A stretch of DNA of 23,973 bases from a virus, in IMG/VR virus record IMGVR_UViG_3300028797_000632, positions 1 through 23,973 of that record; one strand, 5' to 3'. The position numbers and the translations under genes are program-made. Shown in pieces: positions 1-15,169 of this stretch; position 1 is the first letter of the stretch; every line of letters starts with the position of its first letter. The notes beneath the pieces were generated by a model, which worked only from the letters and a program-made list of their open reading frames with translations, was not told the origin of the DNA and did not search any database.

Positions 1-644
1 ATTTCCAACGGATATGATGCATTTCTGCTTCTTGTGGGTTTGGAAGCTGCTATTGTCTGACCAATTCCTTTAATATCCCACAAATCTGAGAACCATACGT
101 TGCGCTCTTCCCAAAAATATGCACTCTTTTGCCGCAATTCTTTTTCTCGTCCGCTAAATGTTCGTTTACCACCCTTGCGGAATATCAGAATATATTCATG
201 TTCATAGGTAACATAAGCACCAGCTGGGTACATTCCTGACCCCATGAATTTATTCGGTGAATTTGTTTGTTTGCGCCAGTGAATATCTGGTAACACGCTA
301 TATCCCATAGCAGAGAAATATTCTATTACTTTTGCGTGATTAGGATATAACTGAAAGTTACTATCAATTGTTCTTGTAGCATCACCAATGTTAATACAAA
401 CAAATCCACCAGATTTTAACACTCTATCACACTCTTCCCATACGCTATTTAATATATTATGCATATGGATAAACGCTTCGTAGCCGTTGCCAGAATACAA
501 TAATTCTTTTGTTGTTGTATCCCATATTGCATCCCACATTTCTATCATCGGATATGGTGGCGAAGTTACAATTAAGTCAACAGATTCATCGGTGATATTC
601 GACAAAAAATTACTATTGCCAATAATTACTTTATGTGTAGTCAT
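1..644 (-). CDS. DNA methyltransferase, N6-adenine/N4-cytosine family, beta class (motif IV SPPY near the N-terminus); C-terminus lies beyond the window edge
   Basis: Reverse-strand translation from the ATG at 644..642 gives MTTHKVIIGNSNFLSNITDESVDLIVTSPPYPMIEMWD...KSGGFVCINIGD... with no stop before position 1. SPPY is catalytic motif IV of amino-MTases. The start overlaps the dUTPase stop (TAATG). The ORF track omits it because it is open at the window edge. Confidence 0.75.
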   Translation of the reverse strand, partial: MTTHKVIIGNSNFLSNITDESVDLIVTSPPYPMIEMWDAIWDTTTKELLYSGNGYEAFIHMHNILNSVWEECDRVLKSGGFVCINIGDATRTIDSNFQLYPNHAKVIEYFSAMGYSVLPDIHWRKQTNSPNKFMGSGMYPAGAYVTYEHEYILIFRKGGKRTFSGREKELRQKSAYFWEERNVWFSDLWDIKGIGQTIAASKPTRSRNASYPLE

Positions 645-1090
645 TATTTTACTCCAGTAGAACCAAAACCACCGGCGCCTCGACTCGTTGTATTAAGCTT
701 CTTCACTTCATTAAACTCAACCTCAAGGTACGGAATGATAACAAGCTGTGCAATTCTTTCGTTCGGCGTAATAAATCTGGACGTATCAGAATCGTTGTGA
801 AGTGCAACTATAATTTCGCCACGATAATCTTGATCCACACATCCTACACAGTTCGCCGGTCTCAGTCCTTCCCTCGCCGCTAAACCAGATCGAGCGAATA
901 TTGCACCAAAATAGCCATCCGGAATAGCCATGGCCAATGCTGTGCCAATCTTTTTTGTTTCGCCAGGTTTAATCTCAATAAAATCTGCATCAACAATATT
1001 TGCGTACAAATCATATCCGGCAGATTCTTTGCTGCCACGAATAGGAACTTTTGCGGTGTCATCAAGTTTTCTAAAATTAATTGTTACCAT
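644..1090 (-). CDS. dut: dUTP pyrophosphatase (dUTPase)
   Basis: The protein MVTINFRKLDDTAKVPIRGSKESAGYDLYA...RSGLA...GVIDQDYRGEI...GGFGSTG carries the canonical dUTPase motifs. The real start is the internal Met of the track ORF, preceded by AAGGAGAAAAAGCACC-ATG. Confidence 0.9.
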   Translation of the reverse strand: MVTINFRKLDDTAKVPIRGSKESAGYDLYANIVDADFIEIKPGETKKIGTALAMAIPDGYFGAIFARSGLAAREGLRPANCVGCVDQDYRGEIIVALHNDSDTSRFITPNERIAQLVIIPYLEVEFNEVKKLNTTSRGAGGFGSTGVK

Positions 1091-1526
1091 GGTGCTTTTT
1101 CTCCTTATGATGAAATTTTGCATGATGTTCTCTAACATGTTTTAATATTTTTTTACGAACCAATTTTTCCATCTCGTTGTGATAATTCGTCACTACTTTC
1201 TCGTACACAAGATTGTCGTGGCGAGCATCTGGATCATAAAACGGTATGTATATATCACCGCCATTACAGGTAACAGATACTATTGTATTACTCATGTTTT
1301 CAACCCAGATTTTGAGTTCAACGTATGGTTGGCTAGTATCATCATATCTGTATAATATTTTATTATATTTGAGGTTGTTTCCTACCAGAGTGAAACCAGC
1401 TTTGGTGGCAACTCCAATAGGAACATCTGGATTAAATTCATAATTCTTCGGTTCTATCACGGATAATCTCCTTATCCTCACAAGGGACGTTCTGACCCCA
1501 CCAATATTGGCGATCTCTCGCATCAC
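1077..1526 (-). CDS. hypothetical protein, His/Lys-rich C-terminus
   Basis: 149-aa ORF with a GTG-ATG start and a 14-nt overlap with the dut start. No recognisable motifs. An overlapping 58-aa Cys-containing ORF (about 1438..1614, MPTIIAGPECNGCIYA...) in another frame makes the true start uncertain. Confidence 0.45.
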   Translation of the reverse strand: MMREIANIGGVRTSLVRIRRLSVIEPKNYEFNPDVPIGVATKAGFTLVGNNLKYNKILYRYDDTSQPYVELKIWVENMSNTIVSVTCNGGDIYIPFYDPDARHDNLVYEKVVTNYHNEMEKLVRKKILKHVREHHAKFHHKEKKHHGNN

Positions 1527-2442: not shown

Positions 2443-4710
2443 TCAACTACAATGTGAAAAACCGCAATCTTTGCATACTGAGCACCCACCTTCAAATACT
2501 AATTCGCCACCACATTCCGGACAAATAGCTTTTGATTTCTGTTTAGGAACTTTTACCATTTCATTATTAACTGCCACTTCAACAAGTTTATCGGATGTTG
2601 GTTCATATTCACCATCGTCGTCAAACAGCTCATACTGCATTTCTTTGTACATATCAAGCAATGCATTAGCAATTGCAACTGGGCAACTATTACCCTTAGA
2701 TGTATCATGTCTGGTTGCTGCTCTTACAGCATATGACGGACAAGCTGGCACACTATGAAGCTGATCGGCAATGCTATATACATCAATTCCGCCTCTTGCA
2801 GACAATGAAATCATCCTAGATATAGCAGTCAGATTACATAGACATCCACCACTTGAACCTTTATTCAAAAAACATTCCAATAAATCGCCAGTATCTGGAT
2901 CAAAGAACGCAGAGCAATGAAGTGTACCACAACCAGTTACCAAATGTCGTTCCTTACCAATTGTATCATTGTCAACACGAATAATCATTCCACGACCAGG
3001 CTTAGTTGGAATACTCTTTTTTTCATCTGTTGAATTATTGTCGAGCGTTAGTATGCCAGTCCTTTTACAGTTATCTCGGAAAATTGTTACGCCTTTAAGT
3101 CCACATTCCCATGCGGTCATATATAATCTTTCAACTTCTTCCACAGAGAAATTATTTGGAACATTTACAGTAGAACTAATACTTGCATCTATATGCTGTT
3201 GCCAAATACCTTGCATTAATATGCGCTTCTCATAAAATATATTTTGTGCCGTAACAAAGAAATCTGGAAGATCAGAGTCATCCGTGAGACTATGCTCGTC
3301 CATGTATTTCTTTACGATTGGAGTATATACTTTATAGTATTCATCATGACCGTGTAGAGACTCTGTTTTGCGTGTATAATAGTTTGCAAAAATCGGCTCA
3401 ATTCCACCAGATATTCCAAGCATTGTTGACAGCGTACCAGTTGGAGCAATGGTTAGTAGCTGAGAATTAGCCAATCCATGAGATATATCAACATTTTCCG
3501 CATGTTTTTTGTAAAATTCAGATTTCGTAACAGCGTCATGGTGATACTTCGGATAATGACCAATTACACTGGCAAGATATGCTGACGTTTGTATTGCCTG
3601 AGATGCCATTGTGTATCCTATCATATTACAAAGATCAATTGATTCATCGTCTCCATACTTAATACCCATTTTGATTAGCATATCAGCTAACCCCATGATG
3701 CCTAACCCAATCTGTCTCCAATCACGAACCGATTCTCGCTGTTCTTGCAATGGATGAAGCGGAAGCCCTTCGTCTAACACATCATTAAGTGCAATTGTCG
3801 CAATATCTACGGTTTTTGCGAAATCATCAAAATTAAATTGTTTATCCTTAGTTACAAATTCAGCAAGATTAATTGAACCGAGAAGACAACTACCACCAGC
3901 TGGCAACGGTTCCTCCGCACACGGATTGGTTCCAGCATAATGGAACTCGTCATCGCAGCTTAACAAATTCCAATTCTCAATTCTGTCCCAAAACAGCATT
4001 CCAGGCTCCGCCCAATCCCAATTTGATTCGCAAATCTTATGGAATAATTCGTATGCATCAACTTCTTTAGTAATTGTCTCGCCAGTTTCTTGTCTGGTAA
4101 AACTTAATGTGAACGGCTCTCGATTTTTTACAGCATTCATAAATTTGTCAGTGATACGAATGCTGATATTTGCTTTCGTTACCCTATCAGTATTTTGTTT
4201 AACACCAATGAATTCTTCAAGGTCAGGATGCTCACAAGAAATTGACAACATCAATGCGCCACGACGACCGTTCTGACCTATTAAGCCAGTAACAAGCGAA
4301 TACAAATCCATGAAACTAACAGATCCAGATGTCTGTTTTGCAGTATTGTTGACCGTCGCTCCTCTTGGGGCAAGATTACTTAAATCAACACCGCAACCAC
4401 CACCATATGAATACGTTCTGGCAAGTTTCTTAGCACAATCGAATATTGATTCAATGCTATCCTCTGGCGGTTCAATAACATAACAGTTGGAGTATGTTAC
4501 TTTTACTCCTAACTTAGGCAACCCACGGTTGGCTAAAATACGACCGCCAAACAAAAACTTTTTTTCAATAATCTGACGTTTGAGTTCTTCATTTTTTGCC
4601 GAAACTCTATTTAACCATTCATCAAAGCTTTCATTGTCATAGCGGTATTTTTTATTCCAAATATCGATTCCAAGCTGATTATCTTTACCAAGCCATTCTT
4701 GTACTGTCAT
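2443..4710 (-). CDS. nrdJ: ribonucleotide reductase, class II-like (adenosylcobalamin-type, NrdJ-like) with a C-terminal Cys4 zinc ribbon
   Basis: 755 aa. It has the RNR active-site signature GTNPCAEEPLPAGGSCLLGSINL (N-x-C-x-E plus a second Cys), which resembles the class II NPCGE(Q/E)PL motif. It also has DWRQIGLGIMGLADML and a C-terminal CPECGG...CSVCKDCG redox/zinc tail. No NrdB/NrdG partner is adjacent. SD GAGGTG lies before the ATG, and the start overlaps the upstream stop (TGAATGA). Confidence 0.7.
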   Translation of the reverse strand: MTVQEWLGKDNQLGIDIWNKKYRYDNESFDEWLNRVSAKNEELKRQIIEKKFLFGGRILANRGLPKLGVKVTYSNCYVIEPPEDSIESIFDCAKKLARTYSYGGGCGVDLSNLAPRGATVNNTAKQTSGSVSFMDLYSLVTGLIGQNGRRGALMLSISCEHPDLEEFIGVKQNTDRVTKANISIRITDKFMNAVKNREPFTLSFTRQETGETITKEVDAYELFHKICESNWDWAEPGMLFWDRIENWNLLSCDDEFHYAGTNPCAEEPLPAGGSCLLGSINLAEFVTKDKQFNFDDFAKTVDIATIALNDVLDEGLPLHPLQEQRESVRDWRQIGLGIMGLADMLIKMGIKYGDDESIDLCNMIGYTMASQAIQTSAYLASVIGHYPKYHHDAVTKSEFYKKHAENVDISHGLANSQLLTIAPTGTLSTMLGISGGIEPIFANYYTRKTESLHGHDEYYKVYTPIVKKYMDEHSLTDDSDLPDFFVTAQNIFYEKRILMQGIWQQHIDASISSTVNVPNNFSVEEVERLYMTAWECGLKGVTIFRDNCKRTGILTLDNNSTDEKKSIPTKPGRGMIIRVDNDTIGKERHLVTGCGTLHCSAFFDPDTGDLLECFLNKGSSGGCLCNLTAISRMISLSARGGIDVYSIADQLHSVPACPSYAVRAATRHDTSKGNSCPVAIANALLDMYKEMQYELFDDDGEYEPTSDKLVEVAVNNEMVKVPKQKSKAICPECGGELVFEGGCSVCKDCGFSHCS

Positions 4711-5155: not shown

Positions 5156-5195
5156 GACATATCTCCTTAATATATGATTTAATTATTCTACTAAT

Positions 5196-6725: not shown

Positions 6726-6760
6726 AATTAGTTCTCCTTAATATGATATTTATTATTACA

Positions 6761-6851
6761 CAAGGGCGGAGCGATTCGAACGCTCATCAGCGGCATCAAA
6801 CGCGCTTACAGATTTAGAGTCTGCTGTTTTCGACCATTAAACTACGCCCCT
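6761..6851 (-). tRNA. tRNA with anticodon CUA (amber/UAG-reading); anticodon arm identical to the E. coli tRNA-Tyr su3/supF suppressor; long variable arm (type II); no encoded CCA
   Basis: Reverse complement is AGGGGCG-TA-GTTTAATGGTCGAAAAC-A-GCAGA[CTCTAAA]TCTGT-(22 nt variable)-GAGCG[TTCGAAT]CGCTC-CGCCCTT-G.
- Acceptor stem: 7 bp, with G2·U71.
- U8 and A9 are present.
- D stem: 4 bp.
- T stem: 5 bp, with a canonical TTCGAAT loop.
- Anticodon loop: CU-CUA-AA with U33 and A37.
- The GCAGA-CUCUAAA-UCUG(U) arm matches the tRNA-Tyr(GUA) arm with G34 changed to C. Confidence 0.75.
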
Positions 6852-6929
6852 AAATTAATCACGCCTTTCTCATTCTTCCGCAAAAGCGAGCTTTCATCTC
6901 CCAGTCCGCAAACCTCGACGAGCATTGAC

Positions 6930-6974
6930 CTACCCGCCGTCACCACGGCAGCAGATCATATATTTGTGCCACAT
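6930..6974 (-). CDS. 14-codon leader-like ORF (MWHKYMICCRGDGG) ending in TAG, directly upstream of the suppressor tRNA
   Basis: Very strong SD (CTATAAGGAGGTTAAA-ATG). The ORF terminates at a TAG at 6930-6932. Read-through would add VNARRGLRTGR and then TGA. Too short to assess by composition. Confidence 0.25.
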   Translation of the reverse strand: MWHKYMICCRGDGG

Positions 6975-7012: not shown

Positions 7013-7300
7013 TTATTCAACCCATTCCGACTCATACCAAACCATCAGAAACTGATCACCAGAAAACTCGTCGGTAAAAATATCATACCCATCCATTTCA
7101 TCATCAAGATAATAGCTATCTCCATCATCACTGATTAATTCACCAGTTGGATAATCATAATGACAAATGCCGACTAAAACATCACGATCATATGGCGTAT
7201 GAGTTCTGTAATTTATTTCAAGCCTTTTTCGTTCTGGGTTGCTTACCTTTTTTATAATCTCTCTAAGCTTCATCTTCGTCTTCGTCCCAACTATCAACAC
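7013..7300 (-). CDS. hypothetical protein
   Basis: 95-aa track ORF. The likely true start is the internal ATG (MKLREIIKK..., about 7275). A 38-aa ORF (7264..7380, MLATTSEKKIKQ..., TAG stop) overlaps its start in ATGAAGCTTAG fashion. Confidence 0.45.
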   Translation of the reverse strand: MLIVGTKTKMKLREIIKKVSNPERKRLEINYRTHTPYDRDVLVGICHYDYPTGELISDDGDSYYLDDEMDGYDIFTDEFSGDQFLMVWYESEWVE

Positions 7301-7407
7301 TTAATATTTCTACATCAACAGCACCAGTCATATCTTTGAGAGTTTGCTTAATTTTTTTCTCGCTAGTAGTAGCAAGCATATCGCCAACTCGACCTTCCCA
7401 AGTTAAA

Positions 7408-7989
7408 TCAGTTCTTACCGTCGTTATTGCCATCGAATTCTACCAACCTTCTCCAACCAAAACACCATGTCCACGCACGGAGTCCGTTATATCCTGCATC
7501 TACCATATCTTCGAATAACCGCTTGCGACTTGCATCAAACATTGGAATATGTAGTCCGTCGTATGTTGCTCTCTCGCCAGCGTACTTTACTCGCTTTACC
7601 AACTCAGTTTCATAATTTTCTTCACCATTATTCCATACGCAAATTTTTTTGATTGCTTCTTTATCGTCAAACGGCTCGTGATTTCTTTTACAACGTCTAT
7701 AATATTTTTTTAATTGATTTAATCGCCATTTGAGCCGATCTTCTTCTTCAATGTCGATGTATGAACGCTCCGATAGATGAGCGTCAATGCCGTCTTCTTT
7801 GGACGATGACATACTAGTTATCAAATAAGGATAATACGGCATCAAATCCTTTTGCGAGTCAATACGCAACGGAATTAAACCATTGTTCGCAGCGTATATA
7901 CGAACATTACTAAAATCAGTGACCTTGTGAATCATTACGAGCGTATCGTAACAATCGCACTTGCCAGTCAGATAACTAATGTTAATCAC
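7408..7989 (-). CDS. hypothetical protein
   Basis: 193-aa ORF with a TGA stop and no recognised motifs. Confidence 0.5.
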   Translation of the reverse strand: MINISYLTGKCDCYDTLVMIHKVTDFSNVRIYAANNGLIPLRIDSQKDLMPYYPYLITSMSSSKEDGIDAHLSERSYIDIEEEDRLKWRLNQLKKYYRRCKRNHEPFDDKEAIKKICVWNNGEENYETELVKRVKYAGERATYDGLHIPMFDASRKRLFEDMVDAGYNGLRAWTWCFGWRRLVEFDGNNDGKN

Positions 7990-8438: not shown

Positions 8439-8757
8439 TACTATTCTCCAATTCTATTACAGTCATCAAACAATAATTCGCCATGTCAATTAACGTGTCA
8501 GTAATCGCTTCGTCGCCGCTATCAACTTCAGGATGCTTTGATAAATTAACAAAACGATTATACTTATCACTGATACGAACAGCGCAAGCAGCAAGACCCC
8601 AATCGCTAAAACTGCGTCCAAAAGAATCACCATAAGCCGCATTCTTCTGGATATATGTTGAATGTATTTGCTCACATAATTCTTCATGTCGTTTGATTTT
8701 GTCCATCGTTGTTTCTCCTGTCGTAAAAATATTTATTGTAAGCATCGTAGCGTTCAT
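8431..8757 (-). CDS. small all-alpha hypothetical protein, possibly DUF1599/MazG-like nucleotide-metabolism associated
   Basis: 108 aa. KNAAYGDSFG...DEAITDTLIDMANYCL is reminiscent of small phage nucleotide-modification-associated helical domains. Recalled from memory only, not verified. Confidence 0.3.
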   Translation of the reverse strand: MNATMLTINIFTTGETTMDKIKRHEELCEQIHSTYIQKNAAYGDSFGRSFSDWGLAACAVRISDKYNRFVNLSKHPEVDSGDEAITDTLIDMANYCLMTVIELENSNE

Positions 8758-9121
8758 GGATATCCATTAAGTTATAACCATGATGCGTTGCCCACTGCTG
8801 AAATTGTTTCCAATATCCGCATGTGGAGAATTCTGGACATCCACAACGATATACGCAATTCGGTACCATCACATTCGACAGTTCTTTCTGGTCGCAATCA
8901 TCACGGATTGCAACCTTAAGTTCTTCCATATGGTGGCGAGTTTCCGGCGACGCCTGATAACATAATCTCCATCTAGCAACATTAATCAACGCTTGTGCAT
9001 TAGCATTGACATCCATGCTAACAAGTGTATCTTGCGGAGATTCATCACGATTTACGCCGGTTCTATCACTACGTTGTGTTGATATCCACTTATCCCAACC
9101 AAGCCAGTGTCGTGCAAACAT
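8684..9121 (-). CDS. hypothetical Cys-containing protein
   Basis: 145 aa with CVYRCGCPEFSTCGYW. It overlaps the previous ORF in another frame. Confidence 0.4.
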   Translation of the reverse strand: MFARHWLGWDKWISTQRSDRTGVNRDESPQDTLVSMDVNANAQALINVARWRLCYQASPETRHHMEELKVAIRDDCDQKELSNVMVPNCVYRCGCPEFSTCGYWKQFQQWATHHGYNLMDIHERYDAYNKYFYDRRNNDGQNQTT

Positions 9122-9271
9122 TTATACCGCTCATTACTGAGTACTTTAACTCTGTTTTCAACAGACGGATTAGACTATCTCATCATCCACACATAAGTGT
9201 TAGGATGCGGTGCGCTTCCAGCGGTACGTCTCCGCTGTACTTCCTTTCGGAATAGTCGTTACAAAAAGAAA

Positions 9272-10195
9272 TTATTCTGTTTTATATGTTTCATTGTTAA
9301 CAATGTGATATATCGTTTTAATACTCGAACGTGATTTAAACTTTTCATAGATTTGAGGTACTTTCATCCCGTCTTTATACATCTGCCTAATAGTGTCAAC
9401 CTCATCTTGTGAAAATTTGGCATTATTATTTCTACATCCATTTTGACGTCCTTTTGGTTTTGTGTGCTTTTTTCTATTATTTGGAAGATCGCTCTGTATG
9501 TGCTTAAATGTATTATTGTTCCAAACATCCATAAATGTATTGAAGTTTTCTATCCCTGAAATTTCAAATACTTCAGCGCACGATAACCGCCCTTTGTTGT
9601 ATTCATCTCTTATCAATATTACTTGTTCATCTGTAACAACTTTAATTGATTCATGAGATTGAACTTTATCATAATTGTTTCTATGAAAATTTTTATTTTC
9701 GTCTGTATAAACGTCTAAATGGATATTTTTCCATGTTTTGCCATGCCAGATATCATTGAATGTATTTATGCTAATTTTGTCAGCGTATTTTTTATAAACA
9801 TTCTGTTTGTCATCATGTTTATTATACGACTCCCTAATATCCCAAATCTCTTCAGATGTCATTTTTGAATTTGGATTATCTTCATTTAATAAATAAGAAT
9901 TAAGATTCCCGCCGGTTGATATATTGTACCCAGCATCACGATTTGTAGAATTATATTTCTAAATATAATATATTTCACGTTCATTTAATTTTTCTTTATC
10001 ACATTCTTCAAGGATATCAAAAGAAAATGCATCAACACCGTATTTATACATCGCTTTATACAAATAAGAATCTTTTCTTTCCGACTCTTGTTTATATTTA
10101 CGCTTATGTTCTCCCCATCTTCTTTTTATATCAATTGATTGTCCAATATATACTTTATTGTTAACAAGATTTCTTATAATATATATTCCAGCCAT
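9272..10195 (-). CDS. GIY-YIG homing endonuclease (I-TevI/Seg-like: GIY-YIG domain plus NUMOD/IENR-type DNA-binding repeats) interrupted by one in-frame TAG (9959-9961)
   Basis: N-terminal part (track ORF 9959..10195): MAGIYIIRNLVNNKVYIGQS...RRWGEHK...EREIYYI, then TAG, then in-frame KYNSTNRDAGYNISTGGN... running into track ORF 9272..9862.
- The interrupted stretch aligns with I-TevI ERENFWIKELNSKINGYNI, so the TAG sits inside the conserved domain.
- No frameshift.
- SD GAAGGAAAATT-ATG.
- The downstream half carries two HTH-like repeats (...LSCAEVFEISGIE..., ...DEVDTIRQMYKDGMKVPQIYEKF). Confidence 0.8.
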
Positions 10196-10321
10196 AATTT
10201 TCCTTCTCGGTATTGCCCTAAGTATAGGGGTTTCACCGATAGCATATTTTTAATACACCCCAATTTGTAAGATTGGTTCACACCGTTTTCATTTACACAT
10301 TACTGTGTAAAGGCACTTCAA

Positions 10322-10522
10322 TTAATGCGTCGCGACCCAGCTTTTAATGTTTGGCCATTTCCACCGAATTGTAATTAATCTAATCGGCGAATGTTCAGAG
10401 ATTAACAAATTATGTATAAACTGTTTGGACGGAACATTGTCTGTCGGATCTTTATTAACTGTATTTCTGCACTCATTTTTCGCCGCCGTCCAATCGGCAT
10501 TAACATTGAGAATTTTAATCAT
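10322..10522 (-). CDS. hypothetical protein
   Basis: 66-aa ORF whose start overlaps the stop of the ThyA-like gene. Confidence 0.35.
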   Translation of the reverse strand: MIKILNVNADWTAAKNECRNTVNKDPTDNVPSKQFIHNLLISEHSPIRLITIRWKWPNIKSWVATH

Positions 10523-13637: not shown

Positions 13638-14921
13638 TTATTTAGCACTATTTCTTCTTAGATAATCATGTTCAATAGACACCTTGGGATTTCTCCGATA
13701 ATTATAGATTTTCTCAATCTGAAGAAGAGCGTCTCTAATCGACTTAATCTTTGTCATTTTCCCATAATTTTTGCGCAGTCTTTTCAGCAGAAATTCGTTA
13801 TCAATTTCTGGATGATTAAAACAAAATGCAAGAGCAATCTTGAAGTAATCTCCGCGACCGCCAACTTCACTTACGATGTTTTTGAACTTCAATTCATATG
13901 TAAGAACAGAGGTTGCTCTCTTAACATCATCGGCAGAACATTTAAGTTTACCACTTCTAATAATTTCGGCATCGGCAGCTGTGATTGATCCAGAGCCAGT
14001 AACTGCGTGATAAACATTGGTAAACCCGACGTCCTCAAATCTGCGATACAACTCCATGAAATTGCGATAGTCGTTTGAAGTTTTTGCCAAACGTGCAATA
14101 TGGTTCATGTTTGAATCTGCAAACTGAATAGTGTTAGTTTTGGAAGCAAAACCACTCTTGTCAACAGTGGTCACATTGGTATTTTTCTTGGATTTATTAC
14201 TGTTTATTCTTTCCTTGTATATCTTGGACTTGGCATTTATTTCACTTACAGCTTGATTAAAATCTCCAAAACCGTGAACACACATATAGTAATTGCTCCA
14301 CTTATCTTTATCCACAAGCATATATCCTTCTTTGTGCATCCACGGAACAACATCTTCATTTTCATTCATATATCTATGAGTAAAATGATCATTTCCTTTG
14401 CTAAACACTTTTGATTTATCATTGCTATATAAATCGTCCGTTATCGTCATAAAGTGACCGATGACTTTGTCTTCTACGGTTTCGATATACGAAAGAATAA
14501 CTTGCGGTCTTTTATGCTCCGCACTTCTATCCTTTACTTTAACACCATATATCATTTCATCACTCATCATCTCTTCTAAGTAGTTCATTTTTTCGATCTC
14601 CTCTTCTGTGTATTTAAACCCTTCCGATCTTGGCGCACCGCCATAAACCTAATTGTAATATTTTCTATTACGAACAACGTCAAGTTTTTGAGTTATCTTT
14701 TGTTCTTGCTTATATAGTTCTGCTTCAGTTTTACACACTTTAAGTATTTTTTTCTTAAAATTCTATCTGCCATATAACTTAAGCGCTTTCAAAAATGCCG
14801 TTCCACTGCCTAAGTAGTCATCTTCTTCTATTGCGCAATGGCAAGTTCTTCTACCAACATATTCCATATTGTTAATAAGATTTGTAGTACAATAAATGTA
14901 ACGATTAGTTATTTCTTTCAT
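13638..14921 (-). CDS. second GIY-YIG homing endonuclease, interrupted by two in-frame TAG codons (14763-14765 and 14649-14651)
   Basis: From the ATG at 14921 (SD AAGGAGTAATA-ATG) the minus-strand reading is MKEITNRYIYCTTNLINNMEYVGRRT...ALKLYGR-TAG-NFKKKILKVCKTEAELYKQEQKITQKLDVVRNRKYYN-TAG-VYGGAPRSEG...
- This runs in frame (111 codons) into the 316-aa track ORF 13638..14588.
- It carries GIY...YVG motifs and an RNRKYYN-TAG segment homologous to EREIYYI-TAG in the first endonuclease and to ERENFWIK in I-TevI.
- The pieces were missed by the ORF track because they are shorter than 60 aa. Confidence 0.7.
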
Positions 14922-14938
14922 TATTACTCCTTAATATA

Positions 14939-15140: not shown

Positions 15141-15169
15141 ATAATACACTATCAAGTCGATTTTGTCAA
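15141..15169 (-). promoter_or_regulatory. near-consensus sigma70 promoter: TTGACA, 17 nt, TATTAT
   Basis: On the minus strand the -35 TTGACA is at 15164-15169, followed by a 17-nt spacer and -10 TATTAT at 15141-15146. The SD+ATG of ORF 14939..15130 lie about 25 nt further on. Confidence 0.6.

Follow-up and report, generated by a model that had tools for sequence, protein, structure and literature searches.

The 23,973-nucleotide (nt) virus record IMGVR_UViG_3300028797_000632 of IMG/VR, analyzed over its whole length and hereafter called the window (W), carries two genes for GIY-YIG homing endonucleases with in-frame TAG codons, of which the second, endonuclease #2, is the main subject of this report. 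Judged from its sequence, endonuclease #2 is one live, intact gene. With a probability of about 0.8, it is an intact SegE-type gene of a phage lineage that reads TAG as glutamine (Gln), its TAG codons would be read via a phage-encoded transfer RNA with the anticodon CUA, tRNA(CUA), and the output of nuclease would be tied to the recoded state of translation. The initial annotation of this DNA had proposed programmed suppression or recoding rather than random decay, and this proposal was strongly supported by sequence conservation, the ratio of nonsynonymous to synonymous substitution rates (dN/dS), protein architecture, the presence of tRNA(CUA), and the use of TAG as Gln in related phages. 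All genes of the window are located on the minus strand. The elements of the gene are as follows.

13638 to 14921, minus strand: complete gene of endonuclease #2, 427 sense codons including two TAG, followed by the stop codon TAA at 13638-13640.

14927 to 14932, minus strand: Shine-Dalgarno (SD) sequence AAGGAG, followed after a 5-nt spacer by ATG 14921-14919; it belongs to the recurring motif ATATTAAGGAG.

14763 to 14765, minus strand: site A TAG, codon 53, in the context LYGR-TAG-NF; the TAG is shared by lineages L009 and L005.

14649 to 14651, minus strand: site B TAG, codon 91, in the context KYYN-TAG-VYGG; the TAG is shared by lineages L009 and L010.

As the initial annotation had described, the SD sequence and ATG at 14921 are followed by 111 in-frame codons ahead of an open reading frame (ORF) of 316 amino acid residues (ATG 14588, stop 13638-13640), and the two TAGs are the only interruptions, with neither TAA nor TGA nor a frameshift. 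From the frequency of TAA and TGA in the window (0.053 per position), a run of 111 codons free of both has a chance of ~0.002. The assignment to the GIY-YIG family and a hidden Markov model match across the bridged region stood as well: with the TAGs masked, SegE_GIY-YIG (PF19835) matched residues 8-91, spanning both TAGs, with 33.7 bits (E 4.8e-8; curated cut-off 25) when the N-terminal domain alone was searched and with 24.5 bits, slightly below the cut-off, for the full-length protein. PHROG 314, 'homing endonuclease', matched residues 8-249 (E 1.5e-19) and thus extended into the '316-aa ORF', for which a search alone against PHROG gave no match. In an alignment of 13 sequences including I-TevI, Y10, Y21, G23, E73, and N90 were invariant, including the tyrosines of the GIY and YIG motifs and the catalytic Glu and Asn (E73 and N90, equivalent to I-TevI E75 and N90). 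For the conserved Arg of the first helix (I-TevI R27), the SegE-type sequences show a gap opposite the 'FEKRW' segment of I-TevI, and R24/R25 after the YVG motif are tentative counterparts at most.

The SegE-type nuclease domain thus covers codons 1 to ~110 and is followed by a C-terminal module of ~315 residues, while standard-code gene callers split the gene into ORFs of 52 and 316 residues. The locus was 100% identical in three contigs (one from an ENA assembly and two from Logan assemblies of separate sequencing runs), indicating that the TAGs are not assembly errors. The C-terminal module, which presumably binds DNA, gave no Pfam match, and the search of endonuclease #2 against PDB sequences found nothing significant. 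The AlphaFold model of the module, built from a 6-sequence alignment, was of moderate quality (predicted local distance difference test score, pLDDT, 63), and Foldseek found no match in PDB with E < 0.05, so that no fold was assigned.

A protein search with endonuclease #2 bridged across its TAGs identified five relatives with 42-86% identity, each annotated only as an ORF of ~305-334 residues. Five lineages were compared for this gene, namely W, L009, L005, L010, and L006. All of them keep a complete frame of ~420 codons with a GIY-YIG N-terminal domain, and TAG is the sole type of interruption. Neither frameshifts in other isolates, which the initial annotation had named as a sign of decay, nor orthologues with an unrelated N-terminus were found among the five. 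The locus is syntenic throughout the lineages, in the order of the gene for a major-vault-protein (MVP) 'shoulder' domain, small ORFs, endonuclease #2, a 62-aa ORF, and NAD-ligase; the gene occupies the same place between the MVP-shoulder gene and the ligase in all five, without presence/absence polymorphism, and is absent from L013 and L014, whose loci are not collinear. A total of six distinct TAG sites were identified over the five lineages, two per lineage when L006 is counted with an inferred TTG start.

W and L009: site A (codon 53) and site B (codon 91).

L005: site A and the position three codons 3' of site A.

L010: codon 4 and site B.

L006: codon ~108, and codon 3 when counted from the inferred TTG start.

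Site A is occupied by TCG (Ser) in L010, by CAT (His) in L006, and by N, D, Y, Q, H, E, or K in uninterrupted relatives, and its TAG is most likely read as sense, as Gln. Site B adjoins the invariant catalytic-site Asn (the I-TevI N90 equivalent) on its 3' side, and is occupied by ATG in L005, by ATT in L006, and by I, V, or C in uninterrupted relatives. The TAG-bearing N-terminal domain is under purifying selection, with dN/dS of 0.06-0.12 (Nei-Gojobori) at dS from 0.8 to saturation, which is at or below the 0.09-0.18 of the C-terminal part in most pairs. A profile search with the C-terminal part retrieved 354 relatives, including uninterrupted proteins of 398-443 residues, in which the C-terminal module begins at residue ~94-135 behind a GIY-YIG-like N-terminal domain; one of these, the 422-residue P0018, aligned with endonuclease #2 of the window over residues 1-422 (37% identity, E 6e-89). 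The kept frame, the purifying selection, and the uninterrupted relatives of the same architecture together exclude both decay and an unrelated N-terminus.

The genetic code of the lineage was examined in relatives traced through the dUTPase of the window. L018 shows 84-86% nucleotide identity to the window over the shared DNA, and both L018 and L016, the latter from a contig of 77.5 kb, run on into an integrase gene and then into a lysis and tail module on the opposite strand. The late genes of these two lineages contain seven TAGs in the endolysin gene, spread along its length, one conserved TAG in the holin gene, and five in a tail-fibre-like gene, while the genes for ribonucleotide reductase (RNR), dUTPase, methylases, and integrase contain none. 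When L016 and L018 were compared, TAG was opposite to Gln at 10 of the 20 informative positions, and to every other residue at one position at most. A stretch of L005 without called genes was found to encode a homologue of nucleoside deoxyribosyltransferase and a protein of 193 residues, which together contain six in-frame TAGs, at which W and L006 carry Q/Q, Q/Q, Q/R, Q/Q, E/E, and E/E, respectively. This integrase-bearing lineage demonstrably reads TAG as Gln in its late genes in the manner of code 15. The phenomenon is the known code-15-type phage recoding and is not peculiar to the two endonuclease genes.

The other TAG-bearing gene of the window is located as follows.

9272 to 10195, minus strand: endonuclease #1, I-TevI-like GIY-YIG, 307 codons, of which codon 79 is its single in-frame TAG (9959-9961).

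This gene and its TAG, first reported in the initial annotation, proved to be real. In P0162, which is uninterrupted and the closest homologue of endonuclease #1 (76% identity), the residue facing the TAG is Gln, as it is in P0164. The second TAG of endonuclease #2 had been proposed to be homologous to this TAG, but the TAG of endonuclease #1 is placed 13 columns further upstream in the 13-sequence alignment, and hence the two are not at homologous positions. The TAG of endonuclease #1, which comes after 'EREIYYI', aligns to the Lys of 'ERENFWI-K' in I-TevI, five residues past the catalytic Glu; the counterpart of EREIYYI in endonuclease #2 is 'KQEQKITQ', and not RNRKYYN as had been supposed. 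Endonuclease #1 is absent at its locus from L005 and L006. It lies inside an insertion of 1,206 nt (9119-10324, minus strand; flanks 10325-10522 and 8684-9118), which interrupts a ThyX-like gene exactly at the junction of residues 66 and 67, the corresponding gene in L006 being a single uninterrupted ORF of 205 residues. The last nucleotide is U in exon 1 and G in the insertion, and GCAU/GUGC could form a P1-like pairing. The insertion is a candidate group I intron, as suggested by these features, and resembles the setting of I-TevI in T4 td; the search of Rfam at permissive thresholds gave no group I intron match on it.

The tRNA and the small ORF preceding it are located at the following positions.

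6761 to 6851, minus strand: tRNA with anticodon CUA, 91 nt, identified by ARAGORN; Rfam tRNA 58.9 bits.

6894 to 6974, minus strand: small leader ORF of 26 codons with its own SD sequence, directly 5' of tRNA(CUA).

L006 11822-11890, L005 ~15975-16050, and L015 3909-3975: leader element in relatives.

The tRNA, for which the initial annotation had proposed to test a role in expression, is real by both ARAGORN and Rfam. It shares its strand with both endonuclease genes and is located 3' of them, ~6.8 kb beyond endonuclease #2, and syntenic copies are present in L006 (11953-12040) and L015. These amber tRNAs are 88-91 nt long, with a variable region of 21-22 nt, discriminator G73, an A1-U72 pair, an anticodon stem of 5 base pairs (bp), and a 9-nt D-loop. 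The acceptor end (weak A1-U72, G2, G3, and G73) presumably resembles the tRNA-Gln identity elements of Escherichia coli GlnRS. No match to either tRNA was found by blastn against deposited phage genomes. We infer that tRNA(CUA) at 6761-6851 is the decoder of the endonuclease TAGs and carries Gln.

The leader ORF of the window reads MWHKYMICCRGDGG-TAG-VNARRGLRTGR-TGA, with the TAG at codon 15. Its core, 'CRGDGG-TAG-[VI]xA[RH]RG', is kept with the in-frame TAG in three lineages, in which the third-position changes are synonymous, and the leader region folds into conserved hairpins with an invariant stretch of 22 nt at its end, before the tRNA. L005 retains the leader element without a tRNA behind it. 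The leader ORF might be a leader or attenuator sensing the efficiency of amber suppression. The search of Rfam at permissive thresholds gave no riboswitch or leader match, the scan of IMG/VR for the leader motif found nothing, and the scan of a single metagenome found only a near-duplicate of L006. An ORF for an HNH endonuclease (PF01844, E 1.4e-5) is inserted right behind tRNA(CUA) in L006 (12075-12527) and L015 (4164-4616), but not in the window; in L006, codons 10 and 21 of this 150-codon ORF are in-frame TAGs.

In the proposed mechanism, both TAGs of endonuclease #2 would be translated, most likely as Gln, by a phage tRNA(CUA) such as that at 6761-6851. When too little of the charged suppressor tRNA is available, release factor 1 of the host would stop translation at codon 53 (or 91), and a complete nuclease domain would not be made. 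The output of active nuclease would then be coupled to the switch into the recoded translation state, despite the location of the gene in a standard-code 'early' module, and the TAGs would delay or limit the synthesis of a protein that is probably an active homing or competitor-cutting nuclease.

The distribution of TAG was examined as its share of all Gln codons (CAA, CAG, and TAG).

Genes of the window other than the endonucleases (5,555 codons): 0/156.

Early and integrase genes of L016 and L018: 0/48 and 0/46.

Late genes of L016 and L018: 20/74 and 11/49 (22-27%).

Endonuclease #1: 1/11.

Endonuclease #2, nuclease domain, five lineages summed: 10/16.

Endonuclease #2, C-terminal ~315 codons, five lineages summed: 0/22.

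Within the window, sense TAGs are confined to the two GIY-YIG genes, with three in 734 codons as against none elsewhere (Fisher p 0.001). Within endonuclease #2, the nuclease domain differs sharply from the C-terminal part (Fisher p = 1.7e-5), and all six distinct TAG sites lie before Met112, within the gene's first quarter (p ~3e-4 if placement is uniform), although these Fisher and placement p-values overstate independence since the five lineages are related. At the TAG rate of the late genes, the absence of TAG from all 22 Gln codons of the C-terminal part would have a probability of ~0.002. A bias toward purines on the 3' side of TAG, noticed by eye, was dropped, as it was not clearly above the expectation from the first position of codons.

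Several observations weigh against a regulated, tRNA(CUA)-dependent synthesis of the nuclease. The decoding, the inserted amino acid, and the timing are all inferred, and any delay is possibly short, since the tRNA gene and the endonuclease genes share one co-oriented block. The long variable region of tRNA(CUA) is atypical for tRNA-Gln and, in constrained folding, forms a convincing structure only in the window (a bulged hairpin of 6 bp, -5.7 kcal/mol), compared with 3 bp in L006. At site B, the insertion of Gln would displace a conserved I/V beside the catalytic Asn, a non-conservative substitution. The window itself contains no late genes, so that L018 and L016 provide the basis for assigning it to the recoded lineage, and two of its ~43 ORFs end in TAG. 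The ORFs with such ends in the clade are as follows.

W 22077-22598 and 7263-7433, both minus strand; L006 10801-11367; L005 17456-17689: ORFs ending in TAG.

Most of these have TAA or TGA 0-14 codons further on, like back-up stops; the exception is the DUF551 gene at 22077-22598, for which readthrough would enter the next ORF (+66 codons). Finally, the LAGLIDADG ORFs of L005 and L006 carry no TAG, and L005 carries TAGs in ordinary early-module genes, including those of nucleotide metabolism, with no tRNA at the syntenic place, which indicates that TAG is not strictly a mark of endonuclease or late genes in this clade.

The last two observations are also what would be expected if recoding is neutral, TAG being just another Gln codon without regulatory meaning in the endonuclease genes, which would be expressed whenever the suppressor is present or would have been acquired from TAG-rich genomes. 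The high share of TAG among late-gene Gln codons agrees with such neutrality, as does the fact that all TAGs except one lie a single mutational step from the orthologous codons. The neutral explanation accounts less well for the nuclease domain, in which the share of TAG exceeds the late-gene rate within the same gene whose C-terminal part has none, for the restriction of six distinct sites to the first quarter, where the TAGs of endonuclease #1 and the HNH ORF are likewise located in their own genes, and for the constant number of two TAGs while their positions turn over. We regard neutral recoding as unlikely, yet as the strongest of the alternatives.

Considerably less probable is the decoding of the TAGs as an amino acid other than Gln, namely as Ser, Leu, or Tyr by a type-II-like tRNA, or as pyrrolysine. 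The variable region of 21-22 nt and G73 recall tRNA-Ser, the codon of L010 at site A is for Ser, and site B is I, V, L, or M in relatives; TAG nevertheless faces Gln most often in the late genes, in L005, and in endonuclease #1. ARAGORN labels tRNA(CUA) as 'Pyl', but this label comes from the CUA anticodon alone. The variable loop of tRNA-Pyl is very short. The identification as tRNA-Pyl was rejected, because tRNA(CUA) combines a 22-nt variable region with a 5-bp anticodon stem and a 9-nt D-loop, and because the scan of window ORFs turned up no pyl genes. In addition, TAG-recoded phages have been reported with TAG-to-Gln reassignment only (Borges et al., bioRxiv 10.1101/2021.08.26.457843).

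Least credible of all is a decayed remnant, in which the GIY-YIG part would be a dead N-terminus and function would be left to the 316-aa ORF or to no part of the gene: homing endonuclease genes do often decay after fixation, and standard-code callers do return two separate ORFs, but the N-terminal domain is constrained at least as strongly as the C-terminal one, its catalytic Glu and Asn and its GIY/YIG tyrosines are invariant, no frameshift, TAA, or TGA has appeared in five lineages with near-saturated synonymous sites (111 codons free of TAA and TGA having a chance of 0.002 per lineage), and the related contigs, at 42-86% identity, are not chimeric or mis-assembled copies of one sequence.

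Beyond the coupling of nuclease output to the recoded state, the boundary inside endonuclease #2 raises the question of two products. A possible internal start was identified at the border.

14586 to 14603, minus strand: possible internal start, GAGGAG (14598-14603), 9-nt spacer, and ATG 14586-14588 (Met112).

Met112 lies exactly where the TAG-rich nuclease domain gives way to the TAG-free C-terminal part, and GAGGAG-N9-ATG is kept in four lineages, with TAGGAG in L006. The residues EE...M around Met112 are, however, also conserved in uninterrupted relatives, so that the apparent SD plus ATG is possibly a by-product of the protein sequence. Since neutral TAGs in a gene translated only under suppression would be expected to approach the late-gene rate in the C-terminal part as well, one explanation for their absence from its 22 Gln codons is that this module is also translated alone in the standard code. 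The gene might then give rise to two products, a standalone module of 316 residues made in the standard code and the full-length nuclease made only with active tRNA(CUA), with the TAGs as a selected switch between DNA-binding and DNA-cutting isoforms; this is put forward tentatively, as a possibility that we do not favor.

The motif ATATTAAGGAG upstream of endonuclease #2 occurs four times on the minus strand of the window (at most one mismatch) as against 0.56 expected, just 5' of start codons, and may be a combined promoter-like and SD element. Its occurrences and a separate promoter match are listed below.

5163 to 5173, 6734 to 6744, and 14927 to 14937, minus strand: occurrences of ATATTAAGGAG.

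15141 to 15169, minus strand: sigma-70-like promoter match TTGACA-17-TATTAT (11/12), 5' of the 63-aa ORF preceding endonuclease #2; weak.

In the promoter and terminator scan around endonuclease #2, the counts of sites were not above those of shuffled sequences. Megablast of the endonuclease #2 locus against deposited phages gave no match.

Other genes of the window and its relatives were also noted. The neighbouring MVP-shoulder gene encodes a protein of 811 residues (15253-17688, minus strand; PF11978, E 4.6e-16) that is conserved in the clade; its homologues are 33-35% identical in uncultured phage genomes of 462-735 kb (LR756500/01/03) and 59% identical on a 205-kb IMG/VR contig. The matches to the 462-735-kb genomes suggested kinship with megaphages, which was dropped after closer relatives showed an integrase and the 77.5-kb contig. 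The RNR gene is intact in the window (755 residues, 2443-4710), but in L005 (18157-20715) and L006 (14344-15985) it is split by an ORF of the LAGLIDADG type, as part of an intron or intein. The dUTPase (644-1138, minus strand) probably begins ~16 codons further downstream than its listed ATG. It shares 65-69% identity with dUTPases from sources named Clostridia bacterium metagenome-assembled genomes, a similarity that hints at a host among Clostridia (Firmicutes). A group of DUF551-type paralogues is located at 19205-19732, 21416-21886, 22077-22598, and 23301-23720 (minus strand), of which 19205-19732 and 22077-22598 share the same N-terminus, MRLIDADAL.

Phages with recoded stop codons were reportedly described by Ivanova et al. 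in 2014. The reassignment of TAG to Gln, suppressor tRNAs, and the combination of standard-code early and integrase genes with recoded late genes were reported by Borges et al. (bioRxiv 10.1101/2021.08.26.457843), and proteomic confirmation of TAG as Gln in crAss-like phages is reported by Peters et al. 2022 (PMC9523058). The present lineage is similar to these code-15 phages in that TAG aligns with Gln, a phage tRNA(CUA) is present, the lysis and structural genes are recoded while the integrase and early genes are standard, and the recoded genes would be untranslatable until the phage alters the state of translation. It is different with respect to the unusually long variable region of the tRNA and the few ORFs still ending in TAG, and, while the named integrase-bearing clades of Borges et al. 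are of 22-34 kb, the relative described here is on a contig of 77.5 kb.

The TGA-recoded Agate phages offer a closer parallel, as an intron endonuclease within an early gene is preferentially recoded in them and its delayed production has been inferred (Borges et al., bioRxiv 10.1101/2021.08.26.457843). In both cases a homing endonuclease with recoded stops is embedded in an early standard-code region and would be produced late. Here, however, TAG (Gln) takes the place of TGA (Trp), the gene stands free of any intron and keeps its syntenic position in five lineages, and only its nuclease domain contains recoded codons. Endonuclease #2 shares with the T4 Seg-type enzymes (SegE, PF19835) and I-TevI the GIY...YIG motif, the catalytic Glu and Asn, an N-terminal nuclease followed by a long C-terminal region, and a site among genes of nucleotide metabolism; it differs in that its C-terminal 315 residues are without a Pfam or fold match and that presence/absence polymorphism is not seen among close relatives. 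The synthesis of I-TevI is said to be delayed through translational control, according to work of the Edgell and Belfort laboratories; a delay here would come from codon reassignment and not from messenger RNA structure.

Recoded homing endonucleases in early modules are thus already known for TGA, and endonuclease #2 is the TAG case; the only features going beyond published work might be the code boundary inside the gene and the retention of two TAGs. The analysis rescues a gene from the 52-aa and 316-aa 'hypothetical' ORFs of standard annotation, both here and in every public relative, and the window contig and its relatives call for annotation aware of code 15. The code boundary within one gene predicts two isoforms, one of them tRNA-dependent. 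Traced through five lineages, among which the TAG positions turn over, endonuclease #2 adds a comparative case to the idea that reassigned stop codons silence dangerous proteins until the phage controls translation.

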